From: a virus
Taxonomy: Duplodnaviria; Caudoviricetes
Direction: 5' to 3' (one strand)
Virus record (IMG/VR): IMGVR_UViG_3300024284_000001
Span: 2,266 to 66,265 of that record
DNA length: 64,000 bases
How positions within the stretch are numbered: position 1 is the stretch's first letter; each line of letters starts with the position of its first letter. A program made the position numbers and the translations under genes. Under the pieces are notes generated by a model. That model ran no database searches. It had not been told where the DNA came from and saw only the letters and a list, made by a program, of their open reading frames with translations. Of this stretch, positions 5,442 through 55,588 are shown piece by piece.

Positions 5442-7958
5442 TCACCCTCCCATCTGTGGGTTGGACTGCATTGCGTTTTGCGGGATCGGAGCGGATCCGC
5501 CCATCGCCTGCGGGCCGGGACCCGGATCCTGCGGCGGACCACCCGGCCCCGGAGCGGGCATCGGGGGCGGCATCATGGCCTGCTTGTGGGCGAGGCCGTG
5601 GAGCCTGACGTTCATCCAGGCTCCCTGGTTCGTCATCTTCAACGCCTGGGCCTCTTCCTTCTCGAGCCATTCCTGGATCGTCTGGAAGTGGACCTCGTGG
5701 TCGTCGAAGTCCTGGTCGATCGGCACGCTCGGGACGAGCGTCGGCTGCGGGGGCGGCTGGATCACCTGGCCGGTCGCCGGATCCTGCATCGGCGGTTGGG
5801 CCACAAGCTGCTGCTGGGGCTCTGACCTCACGAGTTCCTGGATCTCCCGCCGCTGCTGCTCTCGAGCCGACTCGCCGGGGATCTGAAGGCCGGTGAGCCC
5901 CAGGACCCCTTTGATCACCTGCATGTTCTCGGGGCTCGTCCCGATGCCGTTGAGGTACTGATTCGGCGACTGGAGGAGGCCCTCGTAGACCGTCCGCTTG
6001 TCGCCCATCGTCATCGGGTAGGTCTCGTCCGCCTCGGGGAAGACGAGGAACCGACCCTCGAGATCCGTCATCTTGATCGTGACGTTCTTGAATCCACCCT
6101 CGACGGGCTTGGAGTAGGTGACATCCATCCCCAGGGGCTTGCGGGACTCGATGAACGCCTCGACCGCGAGCTTCGCCATCCTCGCGTGAGCGTGTTTCAT
6201 GGACCGCCAGGGGATCCCGAGGCGCCCGAGGGCCTGATCCCTCGCCATCCGGTAGCCGGTGGCGGTCTTGATGTCCTTGTCGCTCTGCCCCTGGATCGCC
6301 GGCAGCGCCCCGGTCATGCCCTCAGAGAGCGGCCCGAGGATCTCCTCGCGAAGGGCCGTGGTCGCCTCCGAGAGCGTTGGAACGCCCGTCTCCCAGAAGT
6401 GGGCACCCGCCGTGTCGCCGGAGTTGAGAGTGATCGGCTGGATCTGGGCGGGCTTGATCTTCTGCTGGTTGATGGCGTCCTGGGAGAAGAGCTTGATATC
6501 GGCGAAGGTCGTCCTGACCCCGTGACGCGCGGCGTCGATCTCGAGATTGATGAGGTCGTTCCCCGCGTCCTGGGCGTCGAGCATGATGTCGCCGATCGAC
6601 TCGCGGACCTGGCCCTCGCCGGGGTACGCGTGGCAGACGACCCAGTCCTTGCTCATTGACCGCTGCCGGGTCTCGAGGAGGAGGTCCCCGCACGAGACCA
6701 TCAGGCAGCCGTCGCCCGAGAAGAGCTTCAGGAACCGCTCCCTCTTGTCCTTGTCCTCGATCCTCCAGAAGGAGGAGGGGCGGAGCCACGTCCGGGTGAG
6801 GGTCAGGAGGTCGGCGTTGTCATCGGCCGAGGAGATGCCGACGTATGGCCCGCTCCGGCCCTTGATCATCAGCCGGACGTTCCTCTCCCACTCTTCCTCC
6901 GGCCCGTTGCCGTAGGTGTTCTTCCCGAGCTTGTCGGCCGCATCCGGGTACATGGCCTTGACCACCGAGCGCTCGACTTCGTCCCTCCAGATGAGGTACG
7001 GGAACTCGTCGATGTCCTTGCCATTAGGCGGGACGAAGAGGTTGAGACCTCCGACGACTTCCACCAGCTCGGCGCCATTCGGGACGTCCTTCGTCCCCAT
7101 CGGCATGTCTACCGTCTGCGTCTCGCGCGGGCGGAAGGACATCGCGGACATCGGCTGCTGGCACATCGGGTTTTGGCATGTGGTTAGCGTATCCCCGTTG
7201 GGCTGGGGAGGGTTCCCCGGCGTCGTCGCCCCGCAGCCGGGACACTCGTAGCGGTCGGGTGCAACCTCGTGAGGGACGGGGAGAATGATCGGCTCGGGAT
7301 GCGTCCCGAAGCGCTGGGCATCGACAACGTGCCGGACGTAGAGCCCGTAGATGCCGTCGTTGTAGAGGAGCCACGCCTCGGTCGCCTGCACCTCTTCCAG
7401 ATGGTTCGTACGGCTGAACAGCTCCCAGATGGAGTTGGCTGCCGCTGCCGTCGCCTGGTCGTCAGAATTCTCGGCGCTCTCCGGGTAGAACCTCACTGTC
7501 GGAGGCGAACTCGAGAGGACGGCGATGAGCGATTGACCGCACCAGCGGTACTTGTTGAAGGTGTAGCCGGGATCGACCTCGTCACGCTCTTCGTCGGCTG
7601 GACGGGCGGTGCCAGCGGGACCAACTTGGATCCCCTCGAAGTCCCCGACCCGGCCGTTCCAGTAAATGTCCTGCTGCCCGGCCCAGTAGTAACGGCTCTT
7701 CCGCTTCTTCCGGATGTCGAGGCGGCGAGACCAAAGGGCCTGACGAGCGATCTTCTTCTGAAGGTCCAGAAGCTCCCGTTGGTCGTCGTCCGTCAGCGTC
7801 GGAGCACCGGGATTCGGGTCCGTAGACGTTGAGAGCGGCTTGCCGCCGAGGTTCTCGGGGACAACCTTCCCAGGCTCGTCCTTGCCGCCGCCACTCAGCA
7901 GCGACACGAGTGCCGGAAGACTGTTCCCCAGGGCCTCCATCGGCATGTTCATCGGCAT
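5442..7958 (-). CDS. Portal protein
   Basis: 838 aa with Pro/Gln-rich tail; located upstream of scaffold and capsid; P22-like long portal layout. Confidence 0.82.
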   Translation of the reverse strand: MPMNMPMEALGNSLPALVSLLSGGGKDEPGKVVPENLGGKPLSTSTDPNPGAPTLTDDDQRELLDLQKKIARQALWSRRLDIRKKRKSRYYWAGQQDIYWNGRVGDFEGIQVGPAGTARPADEERDEVDPGYTFNKYRWCGQSLIAVLSSSPPTVRFYPESAENSDDQATAAAANSIWELFSRTNHLEEVQATEAWLLYNDGIYGLYVRHVVDAQRFGTHPEPIILPVPHEVAPDRYECPGCGATTPGNPPQPNGDTLTTCQNPMCQQPMSAMSFRPRETQTVDMPMGTKDVPNGAELVEVVGGLNLFVPPNGKDIDEFPYLIWRDEVERSVVKAMYPDAADKLGKNTYGNGPEEEWERNVRLMIKGRSGPYVGISSADDNADLLTLTRTWLRPSSFWRIEDKDKRERFLKLFSGDGCLMVSCGDLLLETRQRSMSKDWVVCHAYPGEGQVRESIGDIMLDAQDAGNDLINLEIDAARHGVRTTFADIKLFSQDAINQQKIKPAQIQPITLNSGDTAGAHFWETGVPTLSEATTALREEILGPLSEGMTGALPAIQGQSDKDIKTATGYRMARDQALGRLGIPWRSMKHAHARMAKLAVEAFIESRKPLGMDVTYSKPVEGGFKNVTIKMTDLEGRFLVFPEADETYPMTMGDKRTVYEGLLQSPNQYLNGIGTSPENMQVIKGVLGLTGLQIPGESAREQQRREIQELVRSEPQQQLVAQPPMQDPATGQVIQPPPQPTLVPSVPIDQDFDDHEVHFQTIQEWLEKEEAQALKMTNQGAWMNVRLHGLAHKQAMMPPPMPAPGPGGPPQDPGPGPQAMGGSAPIPQNAMQSNPQMGG

Positions 7959-16154: not shown

Positions 16155-16429
16155 TGAGTCGCTCCATCTGGAAATACCCCGTCAGCATCGAGGACGAGTT
16201 CGAAGTCCAGATGCCCTGCGGTAGCCAAATCCTCTCGGTCCAGGTCCAGGGAGACCAGCCGTTCTTCTGGGCCAGCGTCGAGAAGGACAATGACCTCCGC
16301 AAGAGACGATTCGCCGTGCGTGGGACCGGGCATCCAACAGACGACGTCGCTACCTCCGCGTTCATCGGAACCTTCCAGCTCCACGCCGGCCAACTTGTTT
16401 TCCACCTCTTCGATCGAGGGCCAGTATGA
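16154..16429 (+). CDS. Conserved small phage protein
   Basis: IWKYP...ILSVQVQ...W...RRF...GTGH...GTFQL...LVFHLF pattern familiar from many phages. Confidence 0.7.
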   Translation: MSRSIWKYPVSIEDEFEVQMPCGSQILSVQVQGDQPFFWASVEKDNDLRKRRFAVRGTGHPTDDVATSAFIGTFQLHAGQLVFHLFDRGPV

Positions 16430-17400
16430 CCCCCGCCGAATCCCTAGACGCCGCCATCACCACCCACTTCGAACAACAGCGCCACATCCGCGCCCAGTAC
16501 ACGAACAGGGTTTCCCAGGCCGGGATGGCGCTCGAATGCCAGCGCAGAGCCCAATGGGCGCGCACCCACTGGCAAGACGCCACTCTCCCCGACGTCTCAT
16601 TGCAACGCAGATACACCCTCGGGAACATCTTCGAGCCGGCCATCGTCAAGATGCTGACGGACTCCGGAGTCCCAGTCATCCAACAGCAGCGAGACCTTTC
16701 GTGGCCCGAGTTCCAGCTCACCGGGCACATCGACGGCGTGGTCCTGATCGAGAACGAACAGATCGTCCTCGAGATCAAGTCCGCTTCCCGCTTCTCTTTC
16801 GAGAAGATCCGGAAGGTCGGGAACGCCACCGGCCTCCTGATGGATCCTCGGGCCTACATCCGAGGCTACGTCGTTCAGGCTGCGCTCTACGCCCTCCTGA
16901 TGGGGCTGAAGCGAGCGCTTGTGGTGTTTTGCAGCAAGGACTCCGGCGAGACACACACGATCGAGGTGAGCCTCGACGAACCGGCGGTCCTGGACGTCGC
17001 CGAGAAAGCTCTGAAGCGGTTCGAAAAGATCAACGCCGCCATCGCCGCCAAGGAAGACCTGCCGCCGGAGCCCGGTCCCTATTGCAAGGAATGCCCCTTC
17101 CTGGGGCTCTGCGCGCCGCCTCTGTCCTTCGCCTCGGCCGGCGGGATCGTGGAGGACCCGGCGGCGGAACTGGACCTCACGCGGCGTGCCGAGCTTCTCC
17201 CCGCCCATCAAGAGTTCGAGGCGATCGACGAACGGATGAAGAAGCGGTTCGACCAGGCTGGGTCCTTCATCCTCGGCAAATGGACGGTGGTCGTCCGGAC
17301 TCAGGAGAAGACTTACTACGATGTGCCGAAGGACCAGAAGGAAAGATTTGCGAAGAAACGTTTCGACCTGAGGCGGGAGTATGTGGCCCCATCTGAGTAA
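16426..17400 (+). CDS. Cas4-like PD-(D/E)XK exonuclease
   Basis: GHIDG...LEIKS, QAALY, and 1+3 Cys pattern (ECQR ... CKECPFLGLC). Confidence 0.85.
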   Translation: MTPAESLDAAITTHFEQQRHIRAQYTNRVSQAGMALECQRRAQWARTHWQDATLPDVSLQRRYTLGNIFEPAIVKMLTDSGVPVIQQQRDLSWPEFQLTGHIDGVVLIENEQIVLEIKSASRFSFEKIRKVGNATGLLMDPRAYIRGYVVQAALYALLMGLKRALVVFCSKDSGETHTIEVSLDEPAVLDVAEKALKRFEKINAAIAAKEDLPPEPGPYCKECPFLGLCAPPLSFASAGGIVEDPAAELDLTRRAELLPAHQEFEAIDERMKKRFDQAGSFILGKWTVVVRTQEKTYYDVPKDQKERFAKKRFDLRREYVAPSE

Positions 17401-52100: not shown

Positions 52101-55100
52101 AAGTTGGCGCCCGGCTCGTCGATGACCTTGCCCCCATGCCACCAGGCGCGGACCCGCGCCCCGAGATTCCCGGCGAAGCCCCGCTCTAGCTGCTCTCCCG
52201 CGTGCATGGCCCCGACCGAGCCAGGCGCCGGGCGGGCCTCACCTACTCCGGCGTATTCGGGTTCTCCGTCTCGAGCTGAGTCGGGTCCTCCGCCTTCTTT
52301 CTCGGCGCGTTTCGGAGCAGGATGTTCGCCGGGTTCCGCGCCAGCTTCCTCGGTCCCCCCGCGAGGTTCCTTCCCTCGTCGTTCTTCGGGTAGTCCTTCG
52401 TCGGTCGGGCGTTGCGGTCGTTCTGCGGGAGGCTGTTCCTCGCGAGTAGGTTCTTCCTCCCCTTGTAGCTCCGTAGCGCCTGCTGCGCGTGGCTCACCGC
52501 CCCCTCGTTCACTTTGATCCCGAATTGGCTGGGCTTTAGCATGGGCCTCCTTTTCCTGACGGCGTGAAATCTCACGCGCCGCCGCCTCGAGCATCGTATC
52601 GACGTCCGGCGGTCTCTTCTTCGAGAGGAAGCCGCTCTCCTTCGGACGACCGAGAGCATCCACGACCTCGGCCGCTTCCCTCGTGAGTTCCGAGATCACG
52701 TCGGCGCCGTTACGCCCAGACGCCTCGGCATCGGTGTACGCGGCACGTAGGTAGGCAGCAGCATCTGAGACGTCGGTCTTGTCCGAGGCCGCCTCGTCCA
52801 GGGCCTCACCCAGCGGAACGCGGTGACGTTCGCCCAGGTCAGCCTTTCTCGAGAGTTCGGTGAGGGTGGGCTCGATCGCCTTGCGAGCGTTCTCGAAGGC
52901 TAGACGGCGCGGCTCGCGTAGGGACTGTGTCCCTTGTTCTTGCGGAGCGTTCCCCTCGCCCTCATGCTCTTGAACATTTCGACCTCGGCCAATCTCTTCT
53001 TCGCCGCCTCGAGCGACAGGCCGGGCTTCGACAGGTTCTTGCCCGACTCCGAGGTCACCTTGAATCCGCCTTTGGTCCTGACGATCATTCGGCGCCTCCG
53101 CTACTCCGGGTACTTCTTCGGCCGGAGCGATTCGTTCAGGGGCGGGGCCACGTTCCCTCTCGGTCCCGGCGGGCGTTCCTCGTGGCGGAGCTTCGGCGGG
53201 TGGTGCGCCGGAGGGAAGTACCCGCGTCGCTTCGGGTTCGGGTCCAGCTCGAATCTCACCTTGCTCCCCTTCGGGAGCGACTTCACGAATGCCGCGAAGT
53301 TCTCCACGGGCTCGCTCTCCGGCGGCTTCTCTGGCGGCCTTGTGCTCGTGGAGGGCGCGCTCGGCGGCGGCGATGGCATTTTTGGACCCATTGACGTTCT
53401 CTCCTACGCCGAAGCTGAAGTCGGCCCCGGTGAAAATCTTGGTCGTCCCGTCCGGATAGTCAACGGCAATTCGGCTCTTTTTCAGAATGCCCCTTGCCGT
53501 TTCGAGTCCCGTTCGGAGGCTCTCGGCGTCCTTCCCTCGGTAGAGGAACTCATCTCCCTTGTCGTGGTAGACCTCGAGCCCCGCCTGCTGGGCCGCCCTA
53601 GCCTTCGCCGCCAGCATGGCGTCTCCAGCGGCGTATCCATGGGTGTCATTTAGGGCTTTGAGACCGTCCGAGTCCGACATCGCGTAGGCCCCCGCCTCAC
53701 CCTGAGCCTCGGCGATGTCGAAGGCGTTCCGGTTCTGAATCCCAGCCGTCTTGGAGGTTTCGCTCTCAAGGACACGGCGAACGGCTGGGTGCCCCTCCGG
53801 AAGGTTGACCTCCTTGGCGATGGCCGCCCGACGTTCGGCGATGCGCCGGTCCTCACCATCCGGAATCTCCTCCGGGGGCTCCACCATGCCCCGCCGTTCG
53901 TAGATGGGCTCGGTGCCCGGCTGCCGGATCTCGTAGCGCCCCCTGGCCGGCCCTCCTCGGAGGGCTTCCTCGGGCACTGGGACGAGCGGTGGCGGCTCCG
54001 GAGGCGCCTCAGCGCCGGGAATAGGCGGCACGGGCGCAGGCTGAGGGGCGGGCTCGTCCGGCGGAGCGTTGATCTGGCGGTTCAGTTCGGCCACCACCGA
54101 CTCCACCGCCTGCCGCTTGGTCATGGTCTCCGGGTCGTAGAAGACCATCCCCTTGCCGGTGTCGGCCATCGCGAGGTTCGACGCCTCGGGAGGGGGCGTC
54201 TCGCCGGGAGGGACGAAGATGGGCGTCGATGCTTGCTTGGTTTCAGGCGTAACTGCCGTAGGTTCAGTAGGTTGAGGCGTCGACTCGGAAACGGGTTCGG
54301 CCTTGGGCTCGCTCGCTCGAGCCGCCCCTTCTTTGGCCCCCGCCGCATGGGCCGCCGCCATGGCCGTCATCACCGTGGAGACGGCAGCCCCACCCACGAG
54401 CTTCTCGGCCTCCTCGTAGTTGCCGGCGGCAATGGCCTCGGCCGCAGCCGGGATCTCGTTCTTGGCGAGGTCGTACCCCATCTTCCCGGCGAAGTATGCC
54501 GAGAGCGCTCTCCCCGCCACGCCCGGAAGCCCCGCCGCTCCGGCGATGATCCCGACATTGGCGGGGGTGATCTGAGAGGCCAGGGCCTCCGTGGCCCCCG
54601 TCGCCACTCGAGCCGCTCCCGTGGCGATCTTCCCGGCCTGCGGGATGACGGCCTGGGCCACGGGGTCCGGGATGTTTCGAAGGAGGGCTTGGGCCTGGGG
54701 ACTCTGGATCGCTTGATCGTAGGCCCCCTCGGCGGCCTTGAGTCCAGGCTCGAGCCCGGTCTCCGCCCCCCGGCCGGCGATGTCGCCGATCAGCGGCGCG
54801 GCTTGGAGAGCGGCCCTCCCGCCAGGGATGATGGGCGCTACGGCCTTGGCGATGGGGGATTCGGCTACGTCTCGAGCGATGACCGGAGCGTTTCTCGAGA
54901 TCGAATCGGCGGCTCCGGCAAAGAGCGGACGGCTCGCGGCGTTCCCGAGTTCCTCGAGACTTCTGGGTTGCTCCTTCTCGCGGTTCTGCTGACGGAGAAG
55001 CTCGCCGAGGCGGGCCTTCGCCTTCTCGGCTACCGAGCCGGGGCCGTACGAGGGAGGGCTCGGGCGGAAGCCAGCCTGCTCCGAGGCGGTTATCACTCGC

Positions 55101-55588
55101 CCGCTCTTGCTATCGAGCGTCGCCCCACCGGGCTGCGGGATGAATCGATTCGGGTGGTCGTCCGCCTTGAATTCGGAGGGCCAGTGCCCCGTCTCGTCGG
55201 GACCCTGAACGCCGGCCCTGAACGCCGCCCGGTAGTCGTAGTGGTGCTCGGGTGCGTCGGGGTTCGGATTCAACCCCGTCTTCTGGGCGTTGGCCTTGTA
55301 CCAAGACTGGAATCCGGCCTCGTCCTGGCTCGGCGCCCCCACCGCCGGCTTGGCGATCTGGGGGTCCGGCTCCTCATCTGGCCGAGCGGCGAGCGGCGTG
55401 ATGGGCTTTGGACCGAGGAGCTTGTCGTCGCGGTTCTCGTTCGGTGTAGGGGGCGGGACGGCTTGGAAGGACTTGGCCGGGGCCGGAGTCTTGTGCTGAC
55501 GGATGACCTCGGCGAACTTCTCTTTCGGGAAGTCGTCAGGGAACTCGTACTCGTTCCCGGTCTCCTCGTCAACGACGGTCTGCGGCAT
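49103..55588 (-). CDS. Giant internal virion/DNA-ejection (polyvalent-type) protein with GGDEF-like domain
   Basis: 2161 aa, last gene of the virion module; disordered P/E-rich segments, GGDEF-like domain at about 53400-53765, large helical C-terminal half. Confidence 0.8.
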   Translation of the reverse strand: MPQTVVDEETGNEYEFPDDFPKEKFAEVIRQHKTPAPAKSFQAVPPPTPNENRDDKLLGPKPITPLAARPDEEPDPQIAKPAVGAPSQDEAGFQSWYKANAQKTGLNPNPDAPEHHYDYRAAFRAGVQGPDETGHWPSEFKADDHPNRFIPQPGGATLDSKSGRVITASEQAGFRPSPPSYGPGSVAEKAKARLGELLRQQNREKEQPRSLEELGNAASRPLFAGAADSISRNAPVIARDVAESPIAKAVAPIIPGGRAALQAAPLIGDIAGRGAETGLEPGLKAAEGAYDQAIQSPQAQALLRNIPDPVAQAVIPQAGKIATGAARVATGATEALASQITPANVGIIAGAAGLPGVAGRALSAYFAGKMGYDLAKNEIPAAAEAIAAGNYEEAEKLVGGAAVSTVMTAMAAAHAAGAKEGAARASEPKAEPVSESTPQPTEPTAVTPETKQASTPIFVPPGETPPPEASNLAMADTGKGMVFYDPETMTKRQAVESVVAELNRQINAPPDEPAPQPAPVPPIPGAEAPPEPPPLVPVPEEALRGGPARGRYEIRQPGTEPIYERRGMVEPPEEIPDGEDRRIAERRAAIAKEVNLPEGHPAVRRVLESETSKTAGIQNRNAFDIAEAQGEAGAYAMSDSDGLKALNDTHGYAAGDAMLAAKARAAQQAGLEVYHDKGDEFLYRGKDAESLRTGLETARGILKKSRIAVDYPDGTTKIFTGADFSFGVGENVNGSKNAIAAAERALHEHKAAREAAGERARGELRGIREVAPEGEQGEIRAGPEPEATRVLPSGAPPAEAPPRGTPAGTERERGPAPERIAPAEEVPGVAEAPNDRQDQRRIQGDLGVGQEPVEARPVARGGEEEIGRGRNVQEHEGEGNAPQEQGTQSLREPRRLAFENARKAIEPTLTELSRKADLGERHRVPLGEALDEAASDKTDVSDAAAYLRAAYTDAEASGRNGADVISELTREAAEVVDALGRPKESGFLSKKRPPDVDTMLEAAAREISRRQEKEAHAKAQPIRDQSERGGGEPRAAGATELQGEEEPTREEQPPAERPQRPTDEGLPEERRGKEPRGGTEEAGAEPGEHPAPKRAEKEGGGPDSARDGEPEYAGVGEARPAPGSVGAMHAGEQLERGFAGNLGARVRAWWHGGKVIDEPGANFSKIDALKTKVSGYRLNALAKLSEEAARLGRFTAGAHGRAGVLTNMFRAAIQNDLRSLAEKDGHSNLNYEQDKFVRYLIDHNQRSLVDRWDEMAKDVRGMSDDELTKKIEGDAFETPLQALNTKAPFLIEHEISRGKRKGTKVKSPADLTGDLEALADDPGGARDFLAETFEKARDAAKNGLDPDFEGKKGTDYETTPEVGRMLKTYDDTLGQTFRRAHSLNEGDFRKVDHYFPLQAYEDLTAKKGFDPEFVGGPGVRSSPYKIGPNPRNFFATGLAESYDPSMKRFRSALAQALRKNGGAGFVKSLIDSGAGELWEPKTPGDTPPTSLTMDGEEVRAKSFPIGTDHLIDKNGQLKKIKGGARIVLPEQLAKEIAPILEPREFKEAVWRNVAQKLTTLALGGPTDATIHVANLFSTLVTMTPFISESAAGKTAELAGGHWAKGIITLAKLAAQDPTGADLPRLRELAENGSIPNSYGSHFVLTSDAKAAGAERGLFAVPGDRTASGKRIISPIDIRQFGSLIYDPKYGGDIRARLLIDKAGEQLAKTYGHEWTPEARFNWNRQLGNYVFDLEGDIERGAKGSGLAPFATAGMQGLRNGLRGMFGFQHLPLGEAGEGFKGQAFNRYRAALVWQTAVSGVVLWSLANKLYRDKWPWEEGAKLFQIKIRDDDRRPIKDDDSLGRKALKTAVHAIYGTSVTRPAYFNFGMPMNMQMRGLRASGLKATAEGLMAGRSAKSTGERAVVDSINAMAAPFLGPPIRFASVALMGREPYLERLSLGTQISPKFREADEKRPKTLLEAPLQNLVTAAANTNPIMRRLKETKEQDLPITRTAADAILPQLFKGPYPTTGRWADRHLSDAEEILRGYAADHPFGLAKPDEETRKRLDTVRDLQNQLAEGADRKEIVKQVAQLEKEGKIKPNDRAKILLGTLDSTTREMKESHAPIDVKMEAYEAGTRDEKKKWYPLLLKSYESSLKNQTPDGRALLIEKWKKINAEKRAMR
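52243..52542 (-). CDS. Nested +1-frame gene C (99 aa) inside the giant protein gene
   Basis: AAAAGGAGG-ccc-ATG; MLKPSQFGIKVNEGAVSHAQQ... Confidence 0.55.
   Translation of the reverse strand: MLKPSQFGIKVNEGAVSHAQQALRSYKGRKNLLARNSLPQNDRNARPTKDYPKNDEGRNLAGGPRKLARNPANILLRNAPRKKAEDPTQLETENPNTPE
52900..53088 (-). CDS. Nested +1-frame gene B (62 aa), small basic phage protein
   Basis: GGAGG-7nt-ATG, 12 nt after the stop of nested gene A; MIVRTKGGFKVTSESGKNLSKPGLSLEAAKKRLAEVEMFK. Confidence 0.7.
   Translation of the reverse strand: MIVRTKGGFKVTSESGKNLSKPGLSLEAAKKRLAEVEMFKSMRARGTLRKNKGHSPYASRAV
53101..53391 (-). CDS. Nested +1-frame gene A (96 aa)
   Basis: AGGAG-9nt-ATG; Pro-rich with a central FAAFVKSLPKGSKVRFELDP segment. 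Confidence 0.5.
   Translation of the reverse strand: MGPKMPSPPPSAPSTSTRPPEKPPESEPVENFAAFVKSLPKGSKVRFELDPNPKRRGYFPPAHHPPKLRHEERPPGPRGNVAPPLNESLRPKKYPE

Follow-up and report, generated by a model that had tools for sequence, protein, structure and literature searches.

The window analysed here is a stretch of 64,000 nucleotides from a tailed phage (Duplodnaviria; Caudoviricetes), positions 2,266 to 66,265 of the IMG/VR record IMGVR_UViG_3300024284_000001, a 66-kb virus record with terminal repeats. Its structural gene block contains a giant ORF of 2161 aa (P0001; 49103-55588, minus strand), and the neighbouring ORF 60512-63154 matches the virion structural family phrog_3287. The giant ORF is laid out as an N-terminal region, a GGDEF-like domain, a first linker, a helical middle domain, a second linker and a C-terminal module. 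Three further ORFs lie on the same strand in the +1 frame of this gene: nested ORF 1 (53391-53101, 96 aa), nested ORF 2 (53088-52900, 62 aa, P0003) and nested ORF 3 (52542-52243, 99 aa, or 138 aa when read from an upstream ATG at 52659). The gap between the first two is 12 nt. The first-pass annotation of this locus had described three SD-equipped genes nested in the +1 frame of a virion protein gene, and this observation was confirmed.

The GGDEF-like domain (53333-53722, minus strand, aa 623-752) scored 17.2 bits against Pfam GGDEF (PF00990; E = 0.0044), below the cut-off of 23.8 bits, while the homologous domain in the relative L016 scored 36.8 bits (relatives and their loci are given L numbers here, and proteins P numbers). 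The motif in the window reads KGDEF, and these scores do not settle whether the domain belongs to the diguanylate cyclase family. The corresponding domains of the relatives L136-L140 are 53-55% identical, and the last helix of the domain overlaps the first ~20 codons of nested ORF 1. The middle domain (52545-52899, minus strand) has giant-frame codon bias and no start codon of its own for its first ~68 codons, the first in-frame canonical start being a GTG at about 52697. The C-terminal module (49103-52207, minus strand, 1034 aa) is conserved at the C-terminus of giant proteins of 1500-5700 aa, with 295 hits at E<=0.001 of which 95 were at E<=1e-30, and alignments with P0027 and P0028 begin at aa 1152-1158. 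When the giant protein and its C-module were searched as single queries against cultured phages and IMG/VR, no match was found.

The first-pass annotation gave each nested ORF a strong SD at normal spacing. AGGAG (53405-53401) lies 9 nt before the ATG at 53391 and GGAGG (53099-53095) 6 nt before that at 53088, but AAGGAGG (52552-52546) lies only 3 nt before 52542, so that the third spacing is short rather than normal. An SD-like motif precedes 10 of the 28 +1-frame ATGs in this purine-rich gene, and SD alone is consequently weak evidence. The same annotation held that the stretch between the nested genes lacks an SD-led nested start; it does contain an SD-like ATG at 52659, but the codon bias there belongs to the giant frame. 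ORF length is also weak evidence, since the +1 frame stayed stop-free in codon-order shuffles with P = 0.03, 0.17 and 0.05 for the three ORFs, respectively. Codon bias, in contrast, goes beyond chance. The GC3 of the giant frame falls from about 0.8 to about 0.46 over the nested ORFs, whereas that of the +1 frame rises to 0.83-0.89, against 0.64-0.71 for the other seven +1 ORFs of 60 aa or more. The codon-usage log-odds switch to the +1 frame over about 53370-52950 and 52560-52320 and return to the giant frame in between. The giant frame has recognisable domains on both sides of the nested genes. Three separate assemblies of soil metagenome runs, at depths of 7.7-37.5, give this stretch without any difference or indel, and no promoter-like site was found inside the gene.

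The 62-aa ORF is a real gene. The first-pass annotation had likened its product to a widespread small basic phage protein, and the motif given there is correct. Stand-alone homologues in phages, which had been named in advance as a test, were found: 21 hits with E from 4e-10 to 1e-3 and 53-78% identity in a library of 5.8 billion proteins, and a 43-aa ORF in Aeromonas phage 1233. The family, which has no Pfam match and only stray sub-threshold PHROG hits, consists of proteins of 43-65 aa with the consensus MIxKTxxGYxVxSxxGKNLSKPxLS..A.KRL..VE.FK, and P0003, which starts MIV, keeps all the invariant residues of the 40-residue core (M1, V11, S13, G16, K17, N18, L19, S20, A29, R32, L33, E37 and F39). 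The AF2 model predicts a beta-hairpin (residues 2-12, strands 2-5 and 8-12) followed by a helix (26-44), with pLDDT above 90 over the first 40 residues. Small phage proteins in BFVD superpose on it at rmsd 1.0-1.6 Å, whereas searches of solved structures, including Foldseek against PDB, gave no match and the ESM Atlas gave only unnamed small clusters.

This family has 307 loci in IMG/VR. In 52 of 81 loci examined, at GC 0.32-0.67, the gene is embedded in the same +1 register of an ORF of 935-3573 aa, with ATG kept in 51 of the 52 and a stop after 43-65 codons. The 80 loci are the best-scoring of the 307, so 52 of 81 is not an unbiased frequency. The arrangement recurs in dozens of unrelated uncultivated phages and was seen again in MAG contigs, but no cultured phage with the nested layout was found in 50,697 phage records. 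That the giants are real is supported by L012, where Kinase-PolyVal and InPase lie upstream of the nested gene and LPD38 downstream, all in one frame. More than 20 flank clusters occur in shuffled combinations around the small gene, which is not tied to any one domain, and homology often ends within a few residues of it.

Selection in each frame, also put forward beforehand as a way to decide the matter, was examined by comparing copies. Mean identity is 0.75 in the small frame and 0.41 in the giant frame, against 0.42 in a third-frame control. Among close pairs, 832 differences are silent in the small frame and change the giant while 109 are the reverse, the random expectation being 0.17 to 0.21, and for L006 versus L007 all 16 of 16 differences are silent in the small frame. 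The linker reading of the giant frame carries no sequence conservation of its own but is kept open. T before AA/AG/GA codons was found in 0 of 717 cases in nested AT-rich copies and in 39 of 200 in stand-alone ones, and when synonymous codons were redrawn the probability of an open giant frame had a median of 0.0005 per AT-rich locus. In this high-GC window alone, the giant frame would stay open over the 62-aa gene by chance with P = 0.15. F, Y, W, C, M and H are nearly absent from the linker reading. Both frames are therefore kept by selection, which is the reverse of the outcome (no homologues or conservation in the +1 frame and purifying selection on the main frame only) that the first-pass annotation had said would refute it.

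The 96-aa ORF is probably real, with moderate support. Its GC3 is 0.85 against 0.55 for the giant frame, and homologous +1-frame ORFs sit at the same position, at the end of the same GGDEF-like domain, in six other phages (L016 and L136-L140), with the conserved core PV.(S/N)F..(F/L).K..PK..... The substitution pattern flips from the giant frame to +1 where the domain ends. The AF2 model of the product was of low confidence and uninformative (pTM 0.20), predicting it mostly disordered, and its N-terminal third is probably just the off-frame reading of the end of the domain. The 99-aa ORF encodes an N/R/K-rich, low-complexity product; it has a GC3 of 0.83 and codon log-odds of +0.5 to +0.66 bits per codon in the +1 frame, negative in the giant frame. 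Apart from an SD motif and an open frame it rests on codon bias alone, and the evidence leaves its status undecided. Searches of ORF 1 and ORF 3 against phage records, the library of 5.8 billion proteins, IMG/VR and Pfam/PHROGs returned nothing, as did a metagenome scan with the ORF 1 alignment; since gene callers do not call nested ORFs, protein libraries are expected to be blind here. Related high-GC giants carry further +1-frame gene families in their linkers, including a DUF559 endonuclease gene in L099. ORF 3 was considered as a member of one of these, family 3 (..AYRRGG..F-D-x-I-F-P-P), found upstream of the C-module in relatives, but this was rejected since the profile search gave E = 2.3 and the upstream domain is not homologous either.

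The explanation we favour, with high confidence, is that this stretch of DNA is read in two frames. What the analysis shows is which frame is constrained, in that the small gene also occurs stand-alone and is under selection while the giant's reading of the same bases is a passenger which only has to stay hydrophilic and free of stops and yields an E/Q/G/P/V-rich linker, and that the small gene sits at junctions between shuffled modules of such giants. The remainder is inference. Ribosomes starting at 55588 would make one 2161-aa multi-domain protein of the polyvalent kind; that it is a virion or injected protein is suggested only by its place in the structural gene block, and packaging and delivery were not assayed. 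Inside two inter-domain linkers ribosomes would start again at SD-led ATGs and make small independent proteins, certainly the 62-aa protein, probably the 96-aa one and possibly the 99-aa one. There is no direct evidence of translation of any nested ORF: no RNA run containing the stretch was found, and proteomic data were not part of the analysis. The constant +1 register may be explained by all stop codons beginning with T, since in this register the first codon position of the giant is the wobble position of the small gene, and stops and bulky TNN codons can be removed by changes that are silent in the small gene.

The interpretation offered in the first-pass annotation, that real genes are overprinted on, or were absorbed by read-through into, the linker of an ejection protein, is supported, fully for the 62-aa ORF and moderately for the 96-aa ORF, while it is left open for the 99-aa ORF. 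Its expectation that annotation pipelines would miss such genes is borne out, as the nested copies appear only in six-frame searches of DNA. As for overprinting versus absorption, the small gene is the constrained frame, but which came first was not resolved; the tree of the small protein, which needs 9 changes against 18 in shuffles, has too few columns to tell whether nesting arose once or several times. The function of the 62-aa protein is not known. One may tentatively guess at a small head-internal or co-packaged accessory protein, since it would be made from the same late message as the giant and the same mini-domain forms the N-terminus of prohead core proteins of T1-like phages. The 96-aa product travels with the GGDEF-like domain and may be its partner or regulator.

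Other explanations were considered and are all unlikely. The 2161-aa ORF could be a row of separate genes (an N-terminal/GGDEF gene, small genes, a middle gene, a small gene and a C-module gene) whose off-frame happens to be open in GC-rich DNA. The chance openness in this window is in favour of this, as are an ATG at 52207, a few residues before the start of C-module homology, and the stand-alone C-module (971-1011 aa) in the AT-rich relatives L091-L094 and L098. However, the upstream part has no stop in its own frame, so ribosomes must read on, the middle domain lacks a start, most relatives carry the C-module fused in giants, and in AT-rich phages the open giant frame cannot be chance. P0026, the best hit with an apparently stand-alone C-module, was rejected as such because its contig is cut and the frame is open to its end. 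About equally unlikely, the nested ORFs could be fossils, swallowed when neighbouring genes fused and no longer translated, which keep their old codon bias for a while. The purely compositional evidence for ORF 3, the lack of expression data and the commonness of SD motifs by chance would allow this, but fossils would decay, whereas nested copies of the 62-aa gene diverge almost only by changes silent in the small frame and keep their start and stop across GC 0.32-0.67, and the same flip of selection is seen for nested ORF 1.

Chance ORFs in the shadow frame of a GC-rich, purine-rich gene are very unlikely, although there are ten +1 ORFs of 60 aa or more in this gene and the shuffles and SD counts are permissive. 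The homologues already refute this for ORF 2, and those of ORF 1 and the GC3 of the three ORFs also speak against it. Moreover, a linker in the relative L004, read by eye, keeps high GC3 codons in its own frame, and the P/E/A-rich stretches upstream in the window keep giant-frame GC3 at 0.62-0.80. Frameshift errors are conceivable in a metagenome assembly but highly improbable given the three identical assemblies, the ATG starts and stops of the +1 segments and the recurrence of the layout in dozens of independent contigs. Programmed +1 frameshifting, giving a truncated giant ending on the small domain, would be in line with the constant register and with both frames being open across the junction, but is equally improbable since Met1 is invariant (Ile2 nearly so), stand-alone copies have their own SD, and a +1-frame stop lies 0-32 codons upstream of the ATG in almost all nested loci (42 in L032, the GTG case), leaving little or no room for a shift site.

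The closest known architecture is that of the lambda Rz/Rz1 spanin genes, in which one gene lies entirely inside another in the +1 frame, with its own start and over a linker that tolerates mutation (PMC5295617), and embedded and separate layouts both exist in different phages. Rz and Rz1 are two subunits of one machine, while here the embedded gene is widely spread, strongly conserved and found with more than 20 unrelated flanking domains, the host gene is a multi-domain giant, and several different genes can be embedded in one giant. The polyvalent proteins of phages and conjugative elements (Iyer, Burroughs, Anand, de Souza, Aravind 2017, PMC5512222) are likewise giants with shuffled enzymatic domains, including GGDEF. 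The giant of the window agrees in being a phage-encoded protein with several unrelated domains, but no signature PolyVal or LPD domain was found in it at E<=1; such domains appear only in relatives, in L012 and, as a faint ART-PolyVal hit, in P0027, which shares the C-module. A term search of that paper found no mention of genes inside the linkers, and literature searches by motif and by concept found no description of the arrangement.

In phiX174, genes E within D and B and K within A are completely embedded in a second frame with independent initiation. There the embedded gene is regarded as the newer, de novo frame, the usual direction of overprinting, whereas here the embedded gene is the conserved frame and also occurs stand-alone. 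In polymorphic toxin/immunity cassettes (see also a remark in PMC5512222) a small gene follows each variable domain module, as nested ORF 1 always follows the GGDEF-like domain whatever comes next, but there is no evidence of toxicity or immunity here, and the genes overlap the next linker instead of lying between genes. Inteins and intron-borne homing endonuclease genes also sit as self-contained genes inside an essential gene without breaking it, and the DUF559 gene of L099 is reminiscent of these; splicing signals were neither seen nor looked for, and the insert is simply read through in another frame and becomes a linker.

Overlapping genes in tailed phages are thought to be rare and mostly short, and the 62-aa gene is a strong case of a conserved one, supported by evolution in both frames and invisible to gene callers because it lies inside a longer ORF. 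The arrangement suggests a possible route by which giant multi-domain phage proteins are assembled, neighbouring genes being read through in the one register where stops can be removed silently. One may speculate, at somewhat less than even likelihood, that dual coding is a general building principle of giant polyvalent phage proteins, whose inter-domain linkers would routinely be the off-frame reading of small, independently translated genes. At least five families were seen here (the MIxKT family, the GGDEF-associated peptide and families 2, 3 and 4), plus the DUF559 endonuclease. In this view the embedded genes would mark the junctions at which modules are exchanged, and would act either as conserved recombination sites or as cognate helper or antidote genes that travel with each module.

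A switch of codon-position bias inside long ORFs offers a simple rule for finding more hidden genes, and anyone who recodes, truncates or swaps domains in such giants would unknowingly alter the small ones. The 43-aa core protein is among the most conserved parts of these phages and is a new target for study. TAG recoding was also considered as an explanation of the three TAG stops and was rejected, since the long ORFs of the window end in TGA 8, TAA 7 and TAG 6 times.

The three ORFs described in the first-pass annotation are present as claimed. The sequence belongs to a complete 66-kb virus record with terminal repeats, found in soil metagenomes, and on its minus strand an ORF of 2161 codons runs from 55588 to 49103 within a block of structural genes. 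In the +1 frame of this giant ORF lie the ORFs 53391-53101 (96 aa), 53088-52900 (62 aa) and 52542-52243 (99 aa). The giant frame itself carries a GGDEF-like domain at aa 623-752, which is weak in Pfam but clear in a relative at locus L016 of IMG/VR, a helical middle domain, and a 1034-aa C-terminal module that is conserved at the C-terminus of giant proteins of 1500-5700 aa.

Neither length nor Shine-Dalgarno (SD) motifs are sufficient to distinguish these ORFs from chance, since the gene holds ten +1 ORFs of 60 aa or more, shuffling gives P = 0.03-0.17 for each ORF to stay open, and SD-like motifs precede 10 of the 28 +1-frame ATGs. Codon bias is decisive. The GC3 of the giant frame is about 0.8 elsewhere but about 0.46 over 53370-52950 and 52600-52260, while that of the +1 frame reaches 0.83-0.89 over these ORFs, and a codon-usage log-odds score trained on the long genes of the window changes sign in the same places and returns to the giant frame in between. 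A linker in a relative, read by eye, keeps the bias of its own frame, as do the proline-rich stretches upstream in the window itself. Assembly error is excluded, as three separately assembled runs are identical over 52100-53500 without indels. An anomaly of codon position was also seen at 16290-17396 (+), where a 368-aa ORF has the GC pattern of an off-frame (0.78/0.64/0.45), and the overlapping ORF 16426-17400 (+, 324 aa), or another frame, is more likely to be the gene.

It may be asked whether the giant is really one protein. The part upstream of the nested genes has no stop, the middle domain has no start codon for about 68 codons, and fused giants are the rule among relatives. In the AT-rich phages of loci L091-L094 and L098 the C-terminal module is, in contrast, a stand-alone protein of 971-1011 aa, whereas in GC-rich phages it ends giants of up to about 5700 aa. 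Fusion is hence an evolutionary variable, but in this sequence ribosomes must read through.

The search for stand-alone homologues, which had been proposed at the outset as a test of the nested peptides, was positive for the 62-aa product. It has 21 stand-alone homologues of 43-61 aa, with E down to 4e-10 and 53-78% identity, and one relative is an unannotated 43-aa ORF in Aeromonas phage 1233. The same 43-aa mini-domain forms the in-frame N-terminus of the prohead core protein (weak DUF2213 match) that precedes the decoration and major capsid genes in Klebsiella phage DP01 (L002:3001-3135) and about 90 T1-like phage records. The AlphaFold model predicts a beta-hairpin and one helix with high confidence, and although any function assigned to the small protein is a guess and no solved structure was found to resemble it, many uncharacterised small phage proteins do.

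IMG/VR holds 307 loci of this family, of which the best 80 were examined together with the window. In 52 of these 81, which do not constitute an unbiased sample, the small gene lies inside a stop-to-stop span of 935-3573 codons, and the register is always the same, the small gene being +1 of the giant. The phages range from 32 to 67% GC, ATG is kept in 51 of 52, and the small ORF is 43-65 codons long. The arrangement was seen again in an independent set from MAG contigs. One of the loci, L012, has Kinase-PolyVal and InPase domains upstream of the nested gene and LPD38 downstream, in one frame, so these giants are polyvalent proteins in the sense of PMC5512222. High-GC copies have GGAGG-type SD motifs at 5-8 nt, whereas the AT-rich copies whose upstream sequences were checked have A-rich leaders instead. 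Among loci L006-L085, nested copies of the small gene end in TAG (26) or TAA (17) and never in TGA, while stand-alone copies end mostly in TGA (19 of 25); this difference is unexplained, and lineage or a constraint from the giant frame are both possible.

Selection on the +1 frame, the absence of which had been named beforehand as grounds for rejecting the nested genes, was evident for the 62-aa family. Mean pairwise identity over the overlap is 0.75 in the small frame and 0.41 in the giant frame, compared to 0.42 in the unused third frame. Among 70 close pairs, 832 differences are silent in the small frame and change the giant and 109 are the reverse, where random changes would give a ratio of 0.17 to 0.21, and the copies at L006 and L007 differ at 16 bases that are all silent in the small frame. 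The giant frame is nevertheless protected. In AT-rich nested copies T never precedes an AA, AG or GA codon (0 of 717), whereas in stand-alone copies it does so 39 times in 200. When synonymous codons are redrawn from each giant's own usage, its frame stays open with a median probability of 0.0005, the figure for the window being 0.15. T at that position is depleted in general, so that F, Y, W, C, M and H are almost absent from the linker reading, which is rich in E, Q, G, V and P. While these patterns are observed in the sequences, for which no expression data exist, the step from them to an explanation of the fixed register is our inference: stop codons begin with T, and only in this register does the first codon position of the giant fall on the wobble position of the small gene.

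The giant-frame flanks of the small gene fall into more than 20 unrelated clusters on each side, in shuffled combinations. In many pairs homology ends within a few residues of the small gene, and the overlap is the most widely shared stretch of these giants.

The 96-aa ORF is probably real and tied to the GGDEF-like domain. L016 has the same order as the window, that is GGDEF-like domain, a +1 ORF and then the small gene 4 nt later, and the two upstream peptides align with pairwise E = 9e-5. Five closer relatives of the domain (L136-L140, 53-55% identity) lack the small gene, but all carry at the end of the domain a +1 ORF of about 50-60 codons counted from the conserved ATG (52-113 from the first ATG). 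In five of the seven phages the start codon sits at the homologous position, and the core PV.SF..(L/F)LKLDPK....KVLP is shared. The product is predicted to be mostly disordered. In the last 29 codons of the domain, 92 differences are silent in the giant frame and 45 in +1, while in the next 19 codons the counts are 42 and 77. Just after the homologue of this ORF in L137, L138 and L140, the giant frame continues into a domain with the motifs FQYK...GV.NLL and YVVNGHHR, which looks ParB/sulfiredoxin-like by eye. The window has other modules there, which is another sign of module shuffling at this junction. A further +1-frame segment with switched codon bias lies at 5841-6000 in the giant of L136, its peptide beginning MLDQQTIAEFQERARKLDP...., and may be yet another nested gene.

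Only codon bias, an SD with short spacing and an open frame speak for the 99-aa ORF. No relative was found by any of the search routes used, and it does not belong to the nested family that sits before the C-terminal module in related giants. Its status as a gene is possible but tentative, at slightly less than even. The interpretation offered in the first-pass annotation, that real genes are nested in the linker of the large protein, is accordingly supported for the 62-aa ORF, to a lesser degree for the 96-aa ORF and left open for this third one.

The closest precedent to this arrangement is Rz1 inside Rz, also +1 and also over a linker (PMC5295617). A term search of the paper describing polyvalent proteins (PMC5512222) turned up no mention of embedded genes, literature searches by motif and by concept found nothing, and no cultured phage with this layout was found in the searches made. 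Embedding in the +1 frame over a linker is thus already known, whereas the form described here appears to be new.

A scan of 20-odd high-GC giants for the same switch of codon bias revealed one to four such segments in almost every one. The +1 peptides cluster into families (25 BLASTP links against 8 for the giant-frame reading), and many have good SD motifs. A second family of +1-frame nested ORFs of 82-128 aa (motif ..HW.E..P......L...G.L..) was seen inside the giant ORFs at L096:2622-2975, L099:3417-3803, L102:3018-3266, L104:2889-3146, L106:4200-4580 and L107:3918-4250, most with GGAGG-type SD motifs. It lies just upstream of the giant-frame motif GDFRLTPEQ..GGAKTK.RNNL.AIR, a position read from four of the six (L096, L104, L107 and, more divergent, L099). 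A third family (..AYRRGG..F-D-x-I-F-P-P), at L088:3908-4120, L089:8691-8981, L097:1654-1866, L100:9456-9716, L101:8373-8651 and L090:9810-10010, lies 0.15-1.4 kb upstream of where the match to the C-terminal module begins. The 99-aa ORF of the window holds a similar position but does not match the profile of this family. One of the +1 products is a 217-aa DUF559 (Vsr-like) endonuclease, with Pfam E = 2.8e-12, encoded at L099:6837-7490 within a giant ORF of 3956 codons whose frame stays open across it, and it looks like a mobile endonuclease gene tolerated by read-through.
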